A stretch of 32,000 bases of DNA from Candidatus Pelethomonas sp. (GTDB lineage Bacteria > Bacillota > Clostridia > Oscillospirales > Oscillospiraceae). The stretch spans positions 7,062 through 39,061 of the forward strand of contig JAZOVU010000040.1 of the NCBI GenBank assembly GCA_045658885.1, read 5' to 3'. The notes beneath the pieces were generated by a model, which ran no database searches, had not been told where the DNA came from, and worked only from the letters and a program-made list of their open reading frames with translations. Positions within the stretch are counted from its first letter, which is position 1. The number at the start of each line of letters is the position of its first letter. Position numbers and translations under genes: made by a program. This document shows positions 6,095 through 32,000 of this stretch, one piece after another.

Positions 6095-6889
6095 CTAGGA
6101 CAATTCCGCACCCACATAACGGATATAGGGTATCTTCCCTGCCTCTTTTTGTATCTCCGCCTTGACGCGGAATAATGCTTTCAGATTCTCAGGGGTCAAG
6201 ACTTCTTCGGGTGTTCCCGTACGGAACACCCTACCGTCTTTTATGGCTATGATTCTATCACAGTACTGCATAGCCATATTCATATCGTGGATGGATGTAA
6301 AAATCGTGGTATCTTTGCGACTTTTCATAATATCGAGAATCAGGAATTGATACCCCACATCGAGATGGTTGGTCGGTTCGTCCAAAACAATCAGTTCTGG
6401 ATTTCTGGAAAATGCACTGGCAATGAGAACCTTTTGCTTCTCTCCACCAGACAAACTGAGAAAAGAACGATTCTTGAAATCTAGCATACCAACCGAGGCA
6501 AGGGCTTCTTCACACAGTTTGGTATCATTTGCAGTATTCTTTTCCAGCAGGGTGCGCTTAGAATAGAGGCCAATCATCATAATTTCCATCACGGAAAAGT
6601 CAAAATTGACTTGATTCTCCTGTGCTACCACCGCCATTTGGCGTGCGATTTCCCTGTTGGACATTCGTTCCATTTCTTTGCCATTCAGGTATACACACCC
6701 TGCGGAAGCCTTATTGGCGCGATAGATGGTTTTCAGTAGCGTAGATTTCCCACTTCCATTGGGTCCGATAATACCCACGAAGGAACCTCTCGGAATATCC
6801 AGAGATACCCCTTTGAGCAATTCATGGTGGTCGATTTCATAGTGAATATCCGATACGGATAAAATATTTTCTTTTCCCATAGCCACCAC
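6095..6889 (-). CDS. ABC transporter ATP-binding protein (iron-chelate/cobalamin FecE/FepC-like)
   Basis: Walker A GPNGSGKST, signature LSGGEKQK, Walker B LIVLDEPT. The track start is a GTG at 6889. ATG at 6880 with a GAGGTGG SD is an alternative start. Confidence 0.88.
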   Translation of the reverse strand: MVAMGKENILSVSDIHYEIDHHELLKGVSLDIPRGSFVGIIGPNGSGKSTLLKTIYRANKASAGCVYLNGKEMERMSNREIARQMAVVAQENQVNFDFSVMEIMMIGLYSKRTLLEKNTANDTKLCEEALASVGMLDFKNRSFLSLSGGEKQKVLIASAFSRNPELIVLDEPTNHLDVGYQFLILDIMKSRKDTTIFTSIHDMNMAMQYCDRIIAIKDGRVFRTGTPEEVLTPENLKALFRVKAEIQKEAGKIPYIRYVGAELS

Positions 6890-6890
6890 C

Positions 6891-7940
6891 TCACTGGAAG
6901 GAATATTTGCTGTTCTTCAGAAGTAACAGGAAGAACGGAACGCCAATAAAGGCAGTGACAACACCGATGGGAAGCTCCGAGGGAGCAACTACGACGCGCG
7001 CCAGCGCATCTGCCCAGACCATCAGGATGCCACCCAGCAATACAGCGAATGGTATCATCCGTCGGTGTGCTGTTCCCGCAATGGTTCGTGCAATATGCGG
7101 AATCACCAATCCCACGAAACCAATGGTACCACTCACAGACACCATTACGCCAGTCACCAAACTACTCAGCACAACAATCAACAATTTCAGCCTTGGCACA
7201 TCCACACCCACGGTAATGGCTAATTCTTCCCCGAGGAGCAACGCATCCAATGCTTTATGTGCTGTCAGCATCACACAAAGGCAGAGCACCAACGAAACAA
7301 ACACAGGCAGAACATCGCTCCATGCCACACCAGCAAAAGAGCCAGTCATCCAGAATAAAACAGCCGATAGCTTTTTCTCATTGCTCTGCATGAAAATCAG
7401 CAGATTGGACAGGGCGGAGAACAGGGCAGAGATAGCCGTACCAGACAGAATCAGCTTCGTAGCACTCACACGACCACTCGCACCTGCCAACAGGAACACC
7501 AGTGCAGAGGAAAGAATTGCCCCCAGAAATGCGCCACCTTGCACGGACACTACACCAAGCAGAGGCAGAGTGCCCACTAAGATTGCCGCCGTCGCACCAG
7601 CAGATGCACCAGAGGAAATACCCAATAGATAGGGGTCAGCCATTGAATTTTTCGTCATCGCCTGCATCATAATGCCAACCAAGCTCAACCCTGCTCCCAC
7701 ACAAGCGGCAACCAAGACCTTTGGCAATCGCATTCCCCACACAATGCCATTGGCATACGCTGGCCAGACAACGGGATAGACATCGTTTCCCGTCAGATTG
7801 TTCACCAGAATTTGATACACCCACGCAGGTGTAATATCTACCGCACCGATATGGATAGCCAACACAATCGAAAACAGGAGGAATCCTGCCATCAGGGTAC
7901 AAATTAAAACAAAAAGGGATGTACGAATATTTTTCAGCAT
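6891..7940 (-). CDS. FecCD-family ABC permease
   Basis: 349-aa, very hydrophobic (~10 TM) ORF with glycine-rich FecCD-like segments. It abuts the ATPase gene. Confidence 0.85.
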   Translation of the reverse strand: MLKNIRTSLFVLICTLMAGFLLFSIVLAIHIGAVDITPAWVYQILVNNLTGNDVYPVVWPAYANGIVWGMRLPKVLVAACVGAGLSLVGIMMQAMTKNSMADPYLLGISSGASAGATAAILVGTLPLLGVVSVQGGAFLGAILSSALVFLLAGASGRVSATKLILSGTAISALFSALSNLLIFMQSNEKKLSAVLFWMTGSFAGVAWSDVLPVFVSLVLCLCVMLTAHKALDALLLGEELAITVGVDVPRLKLLIVVLSSLVTGVMVSVSGTIGFVGLVIPHIARTIAGTAHRRMIPFAVLLGGILMVWADALARVVVAPSELPIGVVTAFIGVPFFLLLLKNSKYSFQ

Positions 7941-9210: not shown

Positions 9211-9299
9211 TGGCGCAGCGGGAGGGATTCGAACCCTCGTGCGATTGCTCGCAAACTGATTTCGAGTCAGCCCCGTTATGACCACTTCGATACGCTTGC
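9211..9299 (-). tRNA. tRNA-Ser (anticodon CGA), class II with long variable arm and encoded CCA; the acceptor stem is aberrant
   Basis: The minus strand reads GCAAGCG-TA-TCG-AAGTGGTCATAA-CGG-G-GCTGA-CTCGAAA-TCAGT-TTGCGAGCAATCGCAC-GAGGG-TTCGAAT-CCCTC-CCGCTGC-G-CCA. The anticodon CGA lies at 9264-9262. The T arm, anticodon arm and variable arm fold normally. In the acceptor stem, only 4 of 7 positions pair in the canonical register. Confidence 0.75.
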
Positions 9300-25841: not shown

Positions 25842-25898
25842 GTTGTTTTTTAAAAAATTATTGCAAAATTTGTAGCCAAAAAGGATAGTTCAAGGTGA

Positions 25899-25927
25899 TT
25901 GACAAAACGAGCAGAACATGATATAAT
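25899..25927 (+). promoter_or_regulatory. Consensus sigma-A promoter of the RNase III-like/XRE operon
   Basis: TTGACA (25899-25904), exactly 17 nt, TATAAT (25922-25927). Confidence 0.65.
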
Positions 25928-25933
25928 GAAACC

Positions 25934-26141
25934 ACAAGAAGGCGGTATGAATATTTAAACGGCTGGACATAAAATGAGAATATTTGATTTTAACTATGCA
26001 AGTGGTTAATTTCAAATGGTAGCGATTTATGTAATGCATTTTAACTATTTGTGCCCGATGAAAGCGCACGGGATACGTGGGCTTTGTCGGGCTATACTTA
26101 TACCTTCTTGTAGAAATTACTATAAGGAGGTTGTTTTTATT
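25934..26141 (+). promoter_or_regulatory. Unusually long (~200 nt) 5' leader with long-range pairing
   Basis: ACAAGAAGG (25934-25942) is perfectly complementary to CCTTCTTGT (26103-26111). GCCCGA (26053-26058) pairs with TCGGGC (26087-26092), enclosing CACG-GGATA-CGTG. The AAGGAGG SD is at 26124-26130. Confidence 0.35.
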
Positions 26142-27239
26142 ATGAACAACGAAACATTGGAATTTATCCAAGAACAAATAGGGTATAAATTTAAAAACGA
26201 AGATTTGCTGGTGCAAGCTTTTACAAGACGTTCGTATGCGAATGAAAACGGTGGTGAAGATAACGAAGTATTAGAGTTTATCGGTGATACCGCGCTTGAT
26301 TTTATTGTCGTCAAAATACTTACAGAAAGATATGGGTATTTTGCGAGTGAATGCGATGATTATGATCCCGAAGAAGAATGCAACGAATTTATTTCCGAAC
26401 GAGACGAGGGGCAGCTCACAGAATTAAAAAAGAATTTAGTAAAAAGAGAAACTCTTGCGTCAAGAATTGATGAATTCGGATTTGCGGAGTACTTGATCAT
26501 GGGAAAGGGCGATGAAGACAATAACGCAAATCAAGAAGCTTCAGTAAAAGAAGATTTGTTTGAGGCTATCATTGGTGCTGTTACTCTCGACAGTTCTTGG
26601 GATAATGAAAAGATGCAAGAAGTCGTCGACATTATGCTTAACCCAGATGAGTATTTGGATGCTCAAGATAATGATGATGAAAAAGAAGAAAATTATGTAA
26701 GCTTAATTCAAGAATGGGTTTCTAAAAAGTATAAATGTGTGCCACGGTATATATTCATTGAAGAAAACGACATTTGGCGTGCGCGAGGTGAGTATGATAC
26801 GATTGATGATTATAATTATCACGGGTACGATGAAAAACATGCGTGTGTTTTGAAACTTGGTAGCTTTGATAAAAAATTTCTGTCTTTGGGGCACAGCAAA
26901 AAAAGGGCAAGACTAAACGCTTGCGTTCTGGCGTATAAGTATTTAAGGGAACACAATCTTTTTTATCTGCCTATCGATGAAATCGGAGAGCCTGATGTTT
27001 CAAAAGCAATCAATCAATTGCAAGAACTTCATCAAAAAAAATATATAGGTGAGCCATGGTATGACTTTTCGGAAGCATATGATGATAACGGTAATCCAAT
27101 TTGGCATTGTGAATGTCATGTAAGCGGAAGAGATACTTATTGGTGGAGAGATTGCTCATCAAAAAAACAAGGTAAAAAACTTGTTGCCTATGATATGCTT
27201 TGCGATATCCTCGGCTGGGAGGAAGATGATGAGGCTTAA
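26142..27239 (+). CDS. RNase III-family protein with an internal acidic/Cys insert and two C-terminal dsRBD-like modules (accessory paralogue)
   Basis: 365 aa counted from ATG 26142. Carries the NEVLEFIGD signature and KEDLFEAIIGA, the two RNase III catalytic acid clusters. Has two dsRBD-like C-terminal helices: GHSKKRARLNACVLAYKYL and CSSKKQGKKLVAYDMLCDIL. The gene is clearly A+T-rich (about 30% G+C in a 60-nt sample I counted). Confidence 0.7.
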   Translation: MNNETLEFIQEQIGYKFKNEDLLVQAFTRRSYANENGGEDNEVLEFIGDTALDFIVVKILTERYGYFASECDDYDPEEECNEFISERDEGQLTELKKNLVKRETLASRIDEFGFAEYLIMGKGDEDNNANQEASVKEDLFEAIIGAVTLDSSWDNEKMQEVVDIMLNPDEYLDAQDNDDEKEENYVSLIQEWVSKKYKCVPRYIFIEENDIWRARGEYDTIDDYNYHGYDEKHACVLKLGSFDKKFLSLGHSKKRARLNACVLAYKYLREHNLFYLPIDEIGEPDVSKAINQLQELHQKKYIGEPWYDFSEAYDDNGNPIWHCECHVSGRDTYWWRDCSSKKQGKKLVAYDMLCDILGWEEDDEA

Positions 27240-27429
27240 AGAATTACGTGCAGAAAAGGGAGCAACACAAAAGGAAGTTGCTGAGTTTATTTGTTGTTCT
27301 CCGCTGGTATATTCGCGTTATGAAAGAGAAGAGCGTGAACCGGATATAGATTCGCTTTGCAGACTCGCAGATTATTTCGGAGTAACCATTGACTATTTGG
27401 TTGGACGAGAAAAAACAATTAAACAATAA
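27226..27429 (+). CDS. XRE/Cro-C1-family helix-turn-helix protein
   Basis: MRLKELRAEKGATQKEVAEFICCSPLVYSRYEREEREPDIDSLCRLADYFGVTIDYLVG is a textbook HTH_3 pattern. Its start (ATG 27226 or 27229) lies inside the 3' end of the RNase III-like gene, after a GGGAGGAAG SD. Confidence 0.85.
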   Translation: MMRLKELRAEKGATQKEVAEFICCSPLVYSRYEREEREPDIDSLCRLADYFGVTIDYLVGREKTIKQ

Positions 27430-27430
27430 T

Positions 27431-27476
27431 AAAAAAATCCGATTAGGAGTCGCAAGAAACCTAATCGGATTTTTAT
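27431..27476 (+). terminator. Intrinsic terminator of the RNase III-like/XRE operon
   Basis: ATCCGATTAGG (27437-27447) pairs with CCTAATCGGAT (27460-27470), followed by TTTT. Confidence 0.75.
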
Positions 27477-27495
27477 ATTAGCATCTCAATTTAGC

Positions 27496-27528
27496 GAAAA
27501 AAGGAGATTCTTGTGAATCTCCTTTTTG
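27496..27528. terminator. Second, bidirectional terminator hairpin; on the minus strand it ends the candidate ncRNA
   Basis: AAGGAGATTC (27501-27510), TTGT loop, GAATCTCCTT (27515-27524). Six As lie on one side and five Ts on the other, so the minus strand reads stem + TTTTTTCGC. Confidence 0.7.
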
Positions 27529-27766
27529 GTCTGAGTGGAACCTTGCGTAAGCTCGGCGTGTCCGCCCTCCGAGTAGCAAACAAGACTTCTCGCTCGGCAG
27601 AGCGAGGTCGCAGGCGACAGAACTTGCGCTACCCGGTCAAGTCGCATAGTCAAAAACGACAAATAATCGCAGATTTTTGCCATTTTCTCCTTGCTTTGTT
27701 GACTTCGCGGCGTAAAAACCGTCGTTTAGAAGGTTTTTAGTTGCTCACCCTACCACCCCAAGACCG
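27528..27766 (-). ncRNA. Candidate structured ncRNA of unknown class (~240 nt plus terminator)
   Basis: My hand count gives about 58% G+C over 27531-27660, against about 39% for 27661-27780 and about 30% in a 60-nt sample of the adjacent RNase III-like gene. Perfect local stems are CTCGG/CCGAG (27552-27573), CTCGCT/AGCGAG (27589-27606) and GTCG/CGAC (27607-27618). The ends can pair (27753-27765 with 27528-27538, and 27743-27748 with 27547-27552). The last helix needs a G-U pair that exists only in the minus-strand transcript. The only ORF here reads through the terminator. Confidence 0.4.
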
Positions 27767-27781
27767 ATTTTTATATTTTTC

Positions 27782-28030: not shown

Positions 28031-28081
28031 TTGACAGTAACGCTAATAACTGATATAATATCGTTAGTAACCGTTAGTAAC
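28031..28081 (+). promoter_or_regulatory. Consensus promoter of the AlbA_2/AEP-helicase operon with a tandem palindromic operator over the predicted start site
   Basis: TTGACA (28031-28036), 17 nt, TATAAT (28054-28059). CGTTAGTAAC is repeated perfectly in tandem (28062-28071 and 28072-28081), and each unit contains the GTTA-G-TAAC palindrome. A partial related copy GTAACG lies in the spacer (28037-28042). Confidence 0.6.
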
Positions 28082-28098
28082 GAAGTTGGAGGCAAAAT

Positions 28099-29388
28099 AT
28101 GTTGGAAGATAAGAATATCGAGTTTAAAAGGGAATATGTTGAGGATATAAAAAACACGCTTGTTGCTTTTGCAAATACTGATGGTGGTAATCTTTATATC
28201 GGAATTGACGATGACGGCAATGCTGTTGAAATCAATAATTTTGACGGTGTTATATTACAGATACCACACGTGATCCGAGATGCGATCAAGCCGGATCTTG
28301 CAATGTTTTGCGATATTACTGTGGAAACCGTTCAAAACAAAAAGGTTGTCAAAATCACCGTCAATCGCGGTACTGCCCGTCCTTATTATTTGGCGGCTAA
28401 AGGTATTCGTCCGGAAGGTGTATATGTGAGACAGGGGGCATCATCCGTTCCTGCTTCCGAGAGTGCAATTCTTTCTATGATACGAGAAACAGCTGGGGAT
28501 AGCTATGAGGAGGCGCGCTCGCTTATTCAGGAATTAACCTTCAATGAAGCAAATATTGTTTTTGAAAATAAGCAAATTCCTTTCGGAGACGCACAGAAGA
28601 GAAGCCTTGGCTTGATTGGCGAGGACGGAACGTATACCAATCTTGCGTTGTTGCTTTCCGATCAGTGTACTCATACTGTAAAAATTGCAGTTTTTGAAGG
28701 CGAGCAAAAGACGGTATTTAAGGATAGACGAGAATTTAGCGGTTCGCTGTTAAAGCAGCTTAACGATGCGTATCAGTTTATAGATCAGTTTAATCATACA
28801 CACTCACATACGGAAGGTCTTTACCGTGTTGATAAAAGAGCATATCCTGCGGAAGCAATCAGAGAGGCACTTTTGAACGCTATTGTTCACAGAGAATATA
28901 GCTTTTCAGCGAGCACACTAATCAGTATTTTTGATAACCGAATAGAGTTCGTATCCATAGGTGGACTTGCACACGGTATTTCACAAAGTGATATATTGCT
29001 CGGCATCTCAATTGCTCGAAATAAAAAGCTCGCAGATGTGTTCTATCGTTTGCATTTGATTGAGGCTTACGGCACAGGCATGCCCAAAATCATGGAGTCT
29101 TATAAAGAATACGGAATTGTGCCACATATAGAAATATCGGCCAATGCATTTAAAATTGCGTTACCTAATAATACAAATGCGACTGTTAAAGAAACAAAGG
29201 TTGAGTTGACCGAAAACGAGCAAGGCGTGCTTTCTGTACTGAAAGAAGGAATTAAGTCGCGTCCTGAAATTCAAAAGGCGCTTGGCTTTTCGCAAACGAC
29301 TACGATAGTAACAATATCAGCTTTAATTGATAAAGGCTTGATTATAAAGGTCGGAAATGGGAACAAGACGAAATATAAATTGATATAA
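28099..29388 (+). CDS. AlbA_2 (Schlafen-type) domain + HATPase_c_4-like ATPase + C-terminal winged-helix protein (often annotated as putative DNA/RNA-binding transcriptional regulator)
   Basis: N-terminus NIEFKREY...LVAFANTDGGNLYIGIDDDG (AlbA_2 pattern). Mid-protein AIREALLNAIVHREY (the pattern I recall from RecG-C-terminal-like ATPase family members). C-terminal LTENEQGVLSVLKEGIKSRPEIQKALGFSQTTTIVTISALIDKGLI (wHTH). GGAGG SD 6 nt upstream. Confidence 0.7.
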   Translation: MLEDKNIEFKREYVEDIKNTLVAFANTDGGNLYIGIDDDGNAVEINNFDGVILQIPHVIRDAIKPDLAMFCDITVETVQNKKVVKITVNRGTARPYYLAAKGIRPEGVYVRQGASSVPASESAILSMIRETAGDSYEEARSLIQELTFNEANIVFENKQIPFGDAQKRSLGLIGEDGTYTNLALLLSDQCTHTVKIAVFEGEQKTVFKDRREFSGSLLKQLNDAYQFIDQFNHTHSHTEGLYRVDKRAYPAEAIREALLNAIVHREYSFSASTLISIFDNRIEFVSIGGLAHGISQSDILLGISIARNKKLADVFYRLHLIEAYGTGMPKIMESYKEYGIVPHIEISANAFKIALPNNTNATVKETKVELTENEQGVLSVLKEGIKSRPEIQKALGFSQTTTIVTISALIDKGLIIKVGNGNKTKYKLI

Positions 29389-29402
29389 AAAGAGGCTGTA
29401 AA

Positions 29403-32000
29403 ATGTATGAGAAGCTATATCGTGAGCTTTTGCTACGTTACAACGCATTAGAGGGTGAAAATAAGCGGCTCTCGGAGGAAAATGCGCGGTTGCGACTGCA
29501 ATTTGGCTTTGCGAATGCATTCAATGAAAATACTGAGATACTAGCAATCGCCCCCACTTCTGTCAACAAATACAGCTCTTCAAAGGAAAAGATCGAGTTA
29601 TTCCGTTCGTTGTTTTGTGGCAGGGAAGATGCGTTTGCGAGACGGTGGCAAAGCACGACGATCGGAAAAAGCGGATATCAGCCCGTGTGTGAAAATGAAT
29701 GGGCGGAAGGTTTGTGCGATAAAAGAAAATATAAGTGCGCAAACTGTCCCAATCGAGTGTTAAAATCCTTAACTGATGAAGATATTTACAAGCATCTTGA
29801 GGGAAAGGATGCTCTTGCTCGGGATGTGATAGGAATTTATCCTATGCTGCAGGATGAAACTTGCCATTTCCTGTGTGCCGACTTTGATGATGACTTGTTT
29901 GAAATGGATGTTTCCGCTTTCAGAGAGGTTTGTAAGGAATTAGGGATACCCGTGTACGTGGAACGATCTCGCTCCGGAAATGGCGCCCATTCATGGATAT
30001 TCTTCGAGTCGCCTATTGCTGCCGCTACCGCACGCAAATTAGGAAGTGGTATTTTGACCCAAGCGATGGAGAAGCGCGGAGAGTTGTCATTCAAGTCGTA
30101 TGACAGATTGTTTCCAAACCAAGATACAATGCCTAACGGTGGTTTTGGAAATCTTGTTGCTTTGCCTTTACAAGGACTGGCAAGAAAAAGTGGAAACAGT
30201 GTTTTTGTTGATGAGTATTTTCAACCATATGAAGATCAATGGGCGTATCTTTCTGCTGTAAAAAGATTGAGTGCAGATGCGGTTGAAGCTTTGGTTATGT
30301 CTTTCGGTAAGGATGGTGAGCTTGGTAAACTCATTAGCGAATCCGAAAGTAAGCCGTGGGAAACTAAAAAGAAGATCAAAATTACACGAAGTGATTTTCC
30401 TATGATGCTGAATGTTGTTCGTGCAAATATGCTTTATATTCCTACGGTAGATTTATCCGCGAATGCGAAGAATCAGATCAAACGTCTTGCGGCATTTAAA
30501 AATCCCGATTTTTACCGTGCTCAGGCAATGAGATTACCAATATACGATAAGCCGCGGATCATATGCACAGCGGACATCGCAGAAGATTATATTGCCATTC
30601 CGCGCGGTTGCGAGGAAGCACTTTGCAATCTGCTCGATGAAGCAGACGTATCATATGCAATCGAAGATAAAACCAATTCAGGAGAGATTATACCCGTTAC
30701 TTTTAACGGTGAGTTGCGTGAAGAACAGCGGCCTGCGGCAGACGCACTATTGGAACAAGATACGGGTGTTCTATCTGCAACAACGGCGTTCGGTAAGACT
30801 GTCATTGCCTCGTATATGATCGGGAAAAGAAAAACAAACACCTTGATTCTCGTACATACACAAGCTTTGATGACACAATGGAAAAAGTCTCTCGAAAGCT
30901 TTCTGAAGTTTGACATAATACCGCCCGAGGAAAAGAAGGGCAAAGGTCGCAGGAAGGTGTGGTCTCCCATTGGCATTCTCGGCGCAGGGAAGGATACTTT
31001 ACACAGCGTTGTCGATATTGCTGTTATGCAGTCACTTATTAACGGTGATGAGGTAAAAGAGCTTGTTCGTAATTACGGAATGATTATTGTTGACGAGTGC
31101 CATCACGTTTCTGCGGTCAATTTTGAGATGATACTCAAGCACGTCAATGCAAAATATGTTTATGGACTAACCGCTACACCCACAAGGCAAGATGGACATC
31201 ATCCTATCATATTTATGCAATGCGGTGCGATCCGATACCGCGTAGATGCTAAGGAGCAAGCTGAGAAGCGAAGCTTTGAGCATTATCTCGTGCCGAGGTT
31301 TACCAATACGCGCTGCCCAGGCGAGGGTAAGCCGAGCATCACGGATATTTACAAGAAATTATCTGAAAATGAGCTCCGAAACAATATGATTGTTTTCGAT
31401 GTTGTTGAAGCATCGAAAAACGGAAGAAATCCTATTGTGCTGACCGAACGCCGAGAGCATGTTGCGTTGCTTGCGGAACGGCTTTCCTGTTATTGCAAAA
31501 ACATTATTCAACTCGTGGGAACCGCTTCCGCAAAGGAGCGCAGAGAAACGATGGAAAGGCTTGAAGCTATCCCCAGTGATGAATCGGTTGTCATAGTTGC
31601 AACGGGTAAATACGTAGGAGAAGGCTTCGACTATCCTCGGTTGGATACGTTATTCCTTGCGTTGCCGATTGCGTGGAAGGGTAAAGTCGCACAGTATGTC
31701 GGCAGACTCCACAGAAATTATGAAGGCAAAACCGAGGTGCAGGTCTATGATTATGTGGATATCCATATTCCTGTACTTGAAAGAATGTATCAAAAGCGTG
31801 TGAAAAGTTATTCTGCTATTGGATATAAAACAAAGCTTTTGTCAAATGCCAATGCATCTCCTGACTTGATCTATGACGGAAAATCTTTTTATCACGGATT
31901 TTGTAATGATTTGCAAAATGCTAAAAGCGAAGTTCTGATTGTGAGTCCGTTTATGAGAAAAAGCAGAATCACAAGTCTTATGAAAATCCTTAAGTCGGAT
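29403..32000 (+). CDS. Giant fusion protein: coiled coil + Cys-rich element + archaeo-eukaryotic primase (PrimPol-like) domain + SF2 (DEAD/DEAH, ResIII-like) helicase + start of a probable PLD-like C-terminal domain; runs off the right edge
   Basis: Open frame of exactly 866 codons from ATG 29403 (AGAGG SD 7 nt upstream) to the window end; it is missing from the track only because it is open-ended. AEP motifs checked in frame: CADFDDD (DxD, 29880-29894), SGNGAH (29973-29990) and YDRLFPNQD. Cys cluster: CENEWAEGLCDKRKYKCANCP. Helicase motifs: TAFGKT (GKT, about 30792), VDECHH (about 31092), GLTATPTRQDG and QYVGRLHR. The C-terminal EVLIVSPFM resembles the first strand of PLD-like nuclease domains. 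Confidence 0.8.
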   Translation, partial: MYEKLYRELLLRYNALEGENKRLSEENARLRLQFGFANAFNENTEILAIAPTSVNKYSSSKEKIELFRSLFCGREDAFARRWQSTTIGKSGYQPVCENEWAEGLCDKRKYKCANCPNRVLKSLTDEDIYKHLEGKDALARDVIGIYPMLQDETCHFLCADFDDDLFEMDVSAFREVCKELGIPVYVERSRSGNGAHSWIFFESPIAAATARKLGSGILTQAMEKRGELSFKSYDRLFPNQDTMPNGGFGNLVALPLQGLARKSGNSVFVDEYFQPYEDQWAYLSAVKRLSADAVEALVMSFGKDGELGKLISESESKPWETKKKIKITRSDFPMMLNVVRANMLYIPTVDLSANAKNQIKRLAAFKNPDFYRAQAMRLPIYDKPRIICTADIAEDYIAIPRGCEEALCNLLDEADVSYAIEDKTNSGEIIPVTFNGELREEQRPAADALLEQDTGVLSATTAFGKTVIASYMIGKRKTNTLILVHTQALMTQWKKSLESFLKFDIIPPEEKKGKGRRKVWSPIGILGAGKDTLHSVVDIAVMQSLINGDEVKELVRNYGMIIVDECHHVSAVNFEMILKHVNAKYVYGLTATPTRQDGHHPIIFMQCGAIRYRVDAKEQAEKRSFEHYLVPRFTNTRCPGEGKPSITDIYKKLSENELRNNMIVFDVVEASKNGRNPIVLTERREHVALLAERLSCYCKNIIQLVGTASAKERRETMERLEAIPSDESVVIVATGKYVGEGFDYPRLDTLFLALPIAWKGKVAQYVGRLHRNYEGKTEVQVYDYVDIHIPVLERMYQKRVKSYSAIGYKTKLLSNANASPDLIYDGKSFYHGFCNDLQNAKSEVLIVSPFMRKSRITSLMKILKSD

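Follow-up and report, generated by a model that had tools for sequence, protein, structure and literature searches.

We analyzed a 32,000-nucleotide stretch of DNA from Candidatus Pelethomonas sp. (Clostridia; Oscillospirales; Oscillospiraceae; assembly GCA_045658885.1, contig JAZOVU010000040.1, forward-strand positions 7,062 to 39,061), hereafter the window, in which positions 26142 to 27429 hold a gene for a ribonuclease III (RNase III) family protein, overlapped at its end by a gene for an XRE-family helix-turn-helix (HTH) protein. A first-pass annotation, made from the letters alone, had described the pair as an extra RNase III paralogue, with one ribonuclease III domain (RIIID) and two double-stranded RNA-binding domains (dsRBDs), in a layout resembling that of toxin-antitoxin (TA) modules; its coordinates and sequence features proved correct. 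The present analysis delimits a 1.6-kb self-contained accessory module (window positions 25873-27480), made up of a putative operator, a promoter, a bistable leader RNA, the nuclease gene, the XRE gene and a terminator. Its features are the following:

25873-25887, + strand: putative XRE operator TAGCCAAAAAGGATA, a 15-bp palindrome of consensus TATCC-N5-GGATA, 11 nt upstream of the -35 box
25899-25927, + strand: sigma-70-type promoter, TTGACA-17-TATAAT with TG, 12/12 match; predicted start at about 25934
25934-26141, + strand: structured 5' leader RNA of about 208 nt (minimum free energy (MFE) folding, covariation, covariance model)
25934-25950, + strand: 5' strand of helix P1 (ACAAGAAGG CG GUAUGA), formed by the outermost 5' nucleotides of the transcript and pairing with 26094-26111
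25967-26032, + strand: rod-like hairpin Pa+Pb, about 24 bp interrupted by internal loops; its cap is a GCAA tetraloop (25998-26001) in the conserved UAUGCAAGUG
26053-26092, + strand: P-long hairpin, with outer stem GCCCGAU/GUCGGGC and an inner hairpin of variable sequence
26094-26111, + strand: 3' strand of P1, overlapping the 5' strand of the terminator
26102-26141, + strand: terminator-like hairpin ACCUUCUUGUAG-AAAUUA-CUAUAAGGAGGU, whose 3' strand is the Shine-Dalgarno (SD) sequence AAGGAGG, followed by the U-tract UGUUUUUAUU into the ATG
26142-27239, + strand: RNase III-family gene, 365 aa (profile matches, alignment, AlphaFold2 (AF2), Foldseek)
26142-26669, + strand: RIIID, residues 1-176 (Pfam, AF2)
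26331-26417, + strand: beta-hairpin insert in the RIIID, residues 64-92 (PDB profile alignment, AF2)
26694-26951, + strand: dsRBD1, residues 185-270 (aligned to the dsRBD of 1o0w, AF2)
26997-27212, + strand: dsRBD2, residues 286-357 (Pfam dsrm, AF2)
27226-27429, + strand: XRE-family HTH gene, 67 aa (HTH_3, 3.5e-15)
27427-27480, no strand assigned: inverted repeat ending the operon, with 21-nt arms, a 12-nt loop and A-/T-run flanks, likely a bidirectional terminator

The nuclease gene has its SD at 26124-30, and the profile searches that the first-pass annotation had proposed detected both kinds of domain in its product. Pfam Ribonucleas_3_3 matched residues 19-155 (1.2e-21), Ribonuclease_3 matched with 5.8e-15, and dsrm gave one match (2.5e-8, residues 289-354), while the NCBIfam RNaseIII equivalog model TIGR02191 scored 137.5 bits over residues 10-210 only, below its curated cut-off of 166.25 bits. 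Both catalytic acid clusters are intact, as had been claimed: the motifs read NEVLEFIGD and KEDLFEAIIGA in the window protein, residues E42, D49, D138 and E141 are invariant and E45 nearly so in an alignment of 38 family members, and the motifs are preserved in 76 of 77 family proteins from a gene-agnostic metagenome sample. The suggested insert at about residues 64-92 is also real, since it appears as a 20-residue gap in the profile alignment to T. maritima RNase III (1o0w) and is modelled by AF2 as a beta-hairpin (strands 65-67 and 83-85, predicted local distance difference test (pLDDT) > 90), which replaces the short loop between helices 3 and 4 and adjoins the RNA-binding cleft. The insert had moreover been described as Cys-containing, but its cysteines are not conserved and are incidental. 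The possibility that the insert or dsRBD2 holds a conserved Cys or Zn site was considered and rejected on the same 38-member alignment, in which Cys and His positions vary; C235 and C325 are the conserved exceptions among the cysteines, and they form no consistent cluster.

The two dsRBDs announced by the first-pass annotation were both found. In a profile search against PDB sequences, the family aligned to 1o0w from the N-terminus through the entire dsRBD1, and dsRBD2 matched weakly to R2D2 and TARBP2. The AF2 model, built on the 38-member alignment (mean pLDDT 87.3), gives dsRBD1 an alpha-beta-beta-beta-alpha topology, and the beta1-beta2 loop of this domain contains an additional helix. When this model was searched with Foldseek, its RNase III fold was retrieved, with the bacterial RNase III structures 7r97, 2ez6 and 1o0w as best PDB matches (E about 1e-11); the search against viral structures gave giant-virus RNase III matches only and was uninformative. 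Altogether, the RIIID(+insert)-dsRBD-dsRBD architecture is confirmed, and the protein is predicted to be a catalytically competent RNase III of the class 1 type, with a double-stranded RNA (dsRNA) endonuclease activity to which its fold points.

With class 1 bacterial RNase III (Rnc; TIGR02191; 1o0w, 2ez6, 7r97) the family shares the single RIIID, the signature motif, all catalytic acids and a collinear first dsRBD, and these enzymes are its best matches in both sequence and fold. It differs from them by the 20-residue beta-hairpin insert between helices 3 and 4, by the extra helix or variable insert in the beta1-beta2 loop of dsRBD1, and by having two dsRBDs in 365 aa, whereas class 1 enzymes have a single C-terminal dsRBD in about 220-250 aa; in addition, it falls below the equivalog cut-off, is mobile and sporadic, and is sometimes present in two copies. 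The order of one RIIID followed by two dsRBDs is also that of R3B2 from Mucorales. According to its paper (PMC8136814), however, the eukaryotic R3B2 is devoid of key signature and catalytic residues and has single-stranded RNA as its only substrate, and no specific sequence relationship between R3B2 and the window family was found, so that R3B2 is an analogue in layout and not a relative.

We then turned to the surroundings of the gene in related genomes. A homologue search returned, among the matches listed, at least 120 full-length relatives of about 330-400 aa and 49-92% identity, nearly all of them unnamed or annotated as 'hypothetical protein', from Clostridia and Lachnospiraceae metagenome-assembled genomes (MAGs). 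A scan of 185,579 genomes, one per species, found relatives encoded on 373 stretches with a sporadic distribution, and the 80 best of them come almost entirely from MAGs of gut Clostridia. The loci were compared in a species-level set of 83. In most of the 83 loci, and in both clades, a promoter matching 10-12 of 12 consensus positions lies at -230 to -260 from the ATG, and from this fixed distance the leader should measure about 208 nt; its whole length is conserved across the family.

The leader of the window folds with an MFE of -73.5 kcal/mol (z = -8.0 against 200 shuffles). Across the homologues, 88.8% of the alignment cells of the full leader structure are paired, compared with 39-49% when partners are slid, a level reached by none of 500 shuffles, and 29 of its 40 pairs show compensatory change. 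P1 is paired in 84% of cells, with covarying pairs such as CG29/UA10/UG6 and GC17/AU13, and the helices of the rod covary as well (e.g., UA30/AU18, GC27/AU19, AU24/GC14/UA4). In P-long, RNAalifold and explicit pair counting gave compensatory changes in all seven pairs and 94.6% of cells paired. The terminator/anti-SD hairpin, flagged by a terminator scan at 26102-26131 as a 12-bp stem with a T-run, is paired in 94.1% of cells, with compensatory change in five of eight pairs and many G-U pairs; jointly with P-long it reaches 94.4%, versus 37-59% for slid partners and 0/500 shuffles. The SD-containing hairpin thus covaries across the family, its two strands being found as CCUUCUUGUAG/CUAUAAGGAGG, CCUUUUAGUA/UACUAGGAGG or CCUUUUGGUAA/UUACCGAAAGG. 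The leader also carries a conserved GNRA loop and invariant unpaired motifs. The frequent G-U pairs, together with model scores about twice as high on the + strand as on the - strand, indicate that the structure resides in the sense RNA, and palindromes acting at the DNA level were rejected as the source of the helices for the same reasons. A leader peptide was rejected too, as the ATG within UAUGCAAGUG opens ORFs of only 8-15 codons and some members have AUGUAA or GUGAAA in its place. The leader contains no direct repeats of 16 nt or more and forms one complex fold, and Rfam gave nothing credible over 25934-26141, either at gathering thresholds or with E values up to 10.

The 3' strand of P1 is at the same time the 5' strand of the terminator, so that the two folds are mutually exclusive. 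Transcripts of the window leader ending at 179-186 nt, in which the 3' strand of the terminator is still absent, fold with P1 (25934-42 with 26103-11, and 25944-48 with 26094-98; -67.1 kcal/mol), and at 200 nt the terminator replaces P1 (-71.0 kcal/mol). When 48 homologues were folded independently, P1 formed in the truncated RNA of 44 and the terminator in the full-length MFE structure of 33, the P1-closed and terminator states differing by 0-6 kcal/mol. From these predicted folds, the leader has the design of an ON-switch, in which closed P1 would allow read-through and leave the SD free, and loss of P1 would bring about termination and SD sequestration.

The association of this leader with the nuclease was evaluated with a covariance model built on its 5' domain, which scored 100.8 bits in the window. 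In 77 of 82 loci it found exactly one copy, on the + strand and at the expected place, and no copy elsewhere in 1.06 Mb. Among viral loci it detected the leader in 14 of 19, including those of relatives at 40-47% identity, and found none at the locus of a distant homologue on plasmid pRUMAL01 of R. albus. A leader pattern that ignored the downstream gene was also used; its first, short version gave five matches in viral contigs, two of them by chance (inside tape-measure and terminase genes), and was lengthened before the metagenome scan. The long pattern matched at least 120 metagenome contigs, and the next gene belonged to the RNase III family in all 108 with enough downstream sequence. Because the leader occurs exclusively with one protein family, it is more likely to be specific to that protein than to be a metabolite riboswitch. 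Judged by co-occurrence, the family-wide partner of the nuclease is this predicted RNA leader and not the XRE protein, and the leader probably controls the RNase gene. No PADLOC v2 family matches the RNase, and the literature searched held nothing relevant on an RNase III defence system or on a riboswitch candidate upstream of RNase III genes; neither the family nor its leader seems to have been described in Rfam, PADLOC or that literature.

The XRE gene overlaps the nuclease gene by 14 nt (ATG at 27226) or 11 nt (ATG at 27229) and has its own GGGAGG at 27217-22, as the first-pass annotation had noted, and a start placed within the RNase gene implies translational coupling. Pfam HTH_3 covers residues 4-58 of the 67, leaving no room for a separate domain. 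The other matches are to the RstR family (1.4e-15) and, in PADLOC, to generic HTH regulators only, namely capH (3.3e-9), a restriction-modification (R-M) control protein (0.0095) and the N-terminus of RmrA. An XRE ORF ending 175-215 nt past the RNase stop is present in 28 of the 83 loci, all among the 70 best-ranked and mostly in the nearest relatives of the window, and in only one of 71 unique family proteins from the gene-agnostic metagenome sample; it is absent from the other 55 loci and 70 metagenome copies. An alignment of the upstream regions of XRE-bearing loci revealed that the palindrome marks the 5' boundary of the conserved module. It lies at -262 to -278 in all 26 XRE-bearing loci compared, 23 of which match at 9 or more of 10 positions, a match found in none of 51 loci without XRE, and its variants remain symmetric (TACCC..GGGTA, TAACC..GGTTA). 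Moreover, of 18 perfect palindromes in 1.07 Mb of loci, 16 stand at the operator position.

The comparative evidence is strong that the XRE protein is a DNA-binding autoregulator of the operon. Given that the nuclease is widespread without it and that it is a bare HTH, we read it as a clade-specific controller, comparable to the C proteins of R-M systems, and not as an obligatory antitoxin. With R-M C proteins and small XRE/Cro-type repressors it shares its small size (about 70 aa, HTH only), its co-transcription with a nuclease gene and the palindromic box just upstream of the operon promoter. It differs from C proteins in that its gene follows the nuclease gene instead of preceding it, in that a single 15-bp palindrome takes the place of the usual double C-box, and in that it resembles the control proteins of PADLOC only weakly (E about 0.01). 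Two further observations concern this gene and its putative site. At window 27217-27239, the acidic C-terminal tail (…EDDEA/T) of the nuclease in the XRE-bearing clade shares nucleotides with the SD spacer and start of the XRE gene GGGAGGAAGATGATGAGGCTTAA, and the conservation of this tail is probably due in part to the overlap and not to protein function. In addition, a perfect palindrome TATCCGATACGGATA lies at window 6847-6861, inside an ABC-transporter ATPase gene; it is probably there by chance, because only two of the 18 perfect sites fall off the operator position.

The claim that the gene lies far from the usual rnc context was borne out. There is no synteny among the loci and no conserved housekeeping context, and the surroundings resemble mobile elements and defence islands. 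The genes that recur nearby encode tyrosine and large serine recombinases, C5 DNA methylases, HTH_17 (excisionase-like) proteins, DUF6809, HNH endonucleases, phage integrases, TnpV, FtsK/SpoIIIE, helicases and an IS66 transposase. In one locus (L001) the module adjoins a HipA/HTH pair, with AIPR and DrmE among its neighbours, and in two others (L002 and L003) it has SMC-like ATPases, nucleotidyltransferase pairs and an AEP-TOTE/PLD helicase nearby. Two MAGs carry two copies each (L007 and L009 in JAZRBV01, L077 and L082 in CALWZO01), and the paired copies are divergent, each with its own leader. A family member occurs on 19 IMG/VR contigs, and in L086 and L089, two of those that were annotated, the gene lies at the element's edge, directly behind a tandem pair of large serine recombinases. 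No close relative was found among sequenced phages and plasmids. In the window itself, the genes upstream of the module belong to ordinary metabolism, and the gene is A+T-rich, as had been noted, with a G+C of 0.37 over 26001-27000 compared with 0.40-0.46 in the flanks. Overall, the gene is not a housekeeping rnc but a mobile accessory gene.

In the members without XRE no fixed protein partner was found, as the downstream genes vary (the DUF6809/TnpV backbone, DUF6548, helicases, or unrelated genes). The commonest human-gut form is a protein of 379 aa in the fixed order HTH_17 - RNase III - DUF6809 - TnpV, an arrangement present in loci L058, L064, L082, L084 and L085 and in many human-gut metagenome loci, with FtsK/SpoIIIE, a C5 methylase and helicases nearby; these surroundings look like the backbone of a Tn4451-like element or conjugative transposon. 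In L025 the module is inserted elsewhere in the same Tn4451-like backbone, which suggests that the unit of promoter, leader and gene moves as a cassette. In L029 (6097-6600) and L030 (8975-9463) a DUF6548 gene, and not XRE, overlaps the 3' end of the RNase gene; the encoded proteins (162-167 aa, with an R-x4-H motif, RNQLSH) are translationally coupled partners. The pRUMAL01 homologue of R. albus 7 mentioned above (L103, 76931-78451) is a distant 506-aa 'ribonuclease III domain-containing protein' with 29% identity over 97% of the query and an N-terminal extension, and its gene neighbours encode a topoisomerase, a PP2C phosphatase and TnpB.

Based on these results, we favour a model in which a mobile dsRNA endonuclease limits its own synthesis by acting through the leader of its gene, and we give this model about an even chance of being right. 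Integrative elements, prophages and regions resembling defence islands would carry the module between gut Clostridia. In all clades, the strong near-consensus promoter would give rise to the structured leader of about 208 nt, and the initial 9-17 nt of this RNA would pair with the strand that otherwise forms the 5' half of the terminator, a hairpin that would also sequester the SD. With P1 closed, transcription would read through and the SD would be free, whereas with P1 open or cut, transcription would terminate and translation would be blocked. The RNase may bind or cleave duplexes of the leader (P1 or the 24-bp rod), and its synthesis would in this way be under negative feedback, tuned to the load of competing cellular or invading dsRNA. 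Many parts of the leader are imperfect duplexes of 13-24 bp, which are of the kind bound and cut by RNase III enzymes, and E. coli rnc and rne, whose RNases autoregulate through their own 5' untranslated regions (UTRs), provide a precedent. The E. coli rnc leader and rne 5' UTR are likewise long structured 5' UTRs dedicated to one RNase gene, and the feedback of the enzyme on its own mRNA that is proposed here follows the same logic; they differ in having no sequence or Rfam relationship to the window leader, which has instead a riboswitch-like switch between P1 and a terminator/anti-SD hairpin. In the clade of the window only, the translationally coupled 67-aa XRE protein would bind TATCC-N5-GGATA upstream of the promoter and add transcriptional feedback, most probably repression. 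The module would then combine known kinds of elements, a class 1 RNase III and an RNase-gene leader or attenuator. As to its biological role, it probably benefits or protects the mobile element or its host, for instance against phage dsRNA, and a part in defence or in conflict between elements is plausible. The idea of the first-pass annotation that an RNase III fold serves here as a regulated effector is reasonable in these terms, and it is the part that made the XRE protein its antitoxin that is weak.

Several points weigh against this model. The start of the leader, its termination and its cleavage are predictions. The P1/terminator design is that of a classic ligand-sensing ON riboswitch and is compatible with a small-molecule or another trans-acting effector. 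A promoter of consensus strength is odd for a gene that is to be kept low, and would fit better if the terminated leader were itself an abundant functional product. Finally, the putative operator is centred near -54, outside the core promoter, a position that fits activation as well as repression.

The point on the promoter leads to a reading akin to type III TA and abortive-infection systems, which we regard as unlikely. An abundant terminated leader of about 200 nt would bind the dsRBDs and hold the RNase 'toxin' inert, until shut-off of transcription by a phage, or a flood of dsRNA, caused the labile RNA to be lost or out-competed, upon which the nuclease would degrade cellular or phage dsRNA. 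The order of promoter, structured RNA, terminator and endoribonuclease gene matches the layout of ToxIN, and is shared with CptIN and TenpIN together with carriage on mobile elements; the near-consensus promoter is a family-wide trait, RNA and protein are exclusive partners (108/108), and the context is like that of a defence island or mobile element. However, the leader has a single complex fold without the tandem repeats of ToxI, CptI and TenpI, the fold of the nuclease is that of RNase III and unrelated to that of ToxN/AbiQ, and no PADLOC model matches the enzyme. Moreover, the terminator doubles as the SD sequestrator, unlike that of ToxIN, CptIN and TenpIN, and competes with P1, which looks like cis-regulation. 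In a broader form, the leader would be a new class of structured RNA in a two-part system with a mobile RNase III, where it would serve either to neutralise or decoy the enzyme as an antitoxin RNA or to sense dsRNA that invades the cell; phage or plasmid dsRNA would titrate the enzyme off the leader and so turn the nuclease on. We put this forward tentatively, as an unlikely possibility.

A true riboswitch, in which a small molecule or signalling nucleotide stabilises P1 and turns the nuclease on while the protein plays no part in sensing, is also unlikely in our view. The multi-helix domain closed by P1, the overlap of the 3' strand of P1 with the terminator, the near-isoenergetic states, and the conserved GNRA loop and invariant unpaired motifs are all as expected of such an element. 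Metabolite riboswitch classes, however, usually control several gene families, whereas this leader stands upstream of one family only, has no orphan copies in the 1.06 Mb, and is linked to no metabolic gene.

Still less probable is the reading of the first-pass annotation, a type II TA system with the RNase III as toxin and the product of the overlapping XRE gene acting as both protein antitoxin and autorepressor. The layout on which it was based is real, and XRE is a conserved partner in the clade of the window: the genes overlap by 14 nt with the toxin first, as in higBA and mqsRA, the XRE protein is weakly similar to antitoxin families, the palindromic operator co-occurs with it, and the module of L001 adjoins a HipA/HTH pair. 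It did not hold for the family, in which XRE is missing from most loci and nearly all metagenome copies despite intact catalytic motifs; in addition, the 67-aa protein is an HTH only, apparently with no extra toxin-binding region, and other members have a different downstream partner or none (DUF6548 in L029 and L030).

A housekeeping rnc in unusual form, to which the intact catalytic site and the collinearity of the N-terminal 270 residues with canonical RNase III might point, is very improbable and was rejected on score (below the TIGR02191 cut-off), distribution (sporadic, with two copies in two MAGs) and context (no conserved housekeeping synteny, flanks with integrase and transposon genes, and G+C below that of the flanks). 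The designation as an extra paralogue rests on the same score, distribution and context, and on general knowledge, rnc being near-universal in bacteria.

To our knowledge, bacteria are taken to have one housekeeping RNase III, and Mini-III is the sole paralogue type that is recognised. The family described here numbers hundreds of members or more in Clostridia of the animal and human gut, carries an added dsRBD, is mobile, and is annotated as 'hypothetical' or 'RNase III domain-containing'. Its leader of about 200 nt is strongly covarying and apparently undescribed, and has the build of an ON riboswitch, yet it is tied to a single protein family. If, as in the favoured model, the enzyme senses or cuts its own leader, the module would be a clean natural case in which nuclease homeostasis is tied to the load of dsRNA; if the RNA acts instead as an antitoxin or a sensor, dsRNA-directed immunity in bacteria would be indicated, and, should the dsRNA-sensor reading be true, the module would be a bacterial, Dicer-independent immune or abortive-infection system triggered by dsRNA. 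In either case, the module is compact (1.6 kb), and XRE and palindrome may serve as a ready-made pair of regulator and operator.

Some further features of the window lie outside the module. The next gene downstream encodes a 429-aa Schlafen/AlbA_2-HATPase_c_4 protein (window 28031-29388, with its promoter), driven by a perfect sigma-70 promoter (TTGACA-17-TGnTATAAT, 28031-28059); it has a Schlafen AlbA_2 domain, HATPase_c_4 and a C-terminal winged HTH, with weak PADLOC similarity to the PNTD regions of pAgo-associated (Aga) proteins and to the HTH of CasR/Csa3. Together with the RNase module, this gene may form a small defence islet beside metabolic genes. Between the terminator of the operon and this promoter, window 27480-27780 is a relatively G+C-rich non-coding stretch, which may be the remnant of an insertion junction and contains a GC-rich hairpin (CTCGCTCTGCCGAGCGAG, 27589-27606) resembling a terminator on the - strand. 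The last 2.6 kb or so of the window (29400-32000) has no ORF above 129 aa on either strand, counting ORFs that end within the window, as one running off its end would not be listed, and neither tandem repeats nor an Rfam match; it could consist of degraded genes or non-coding DNA. Finally, Rfam places an 86-nt tRNA on the - strand at window 9214-9299 (36.6 bits, above the gathering threshold), while ARAGORN finds no tRNA in the window.

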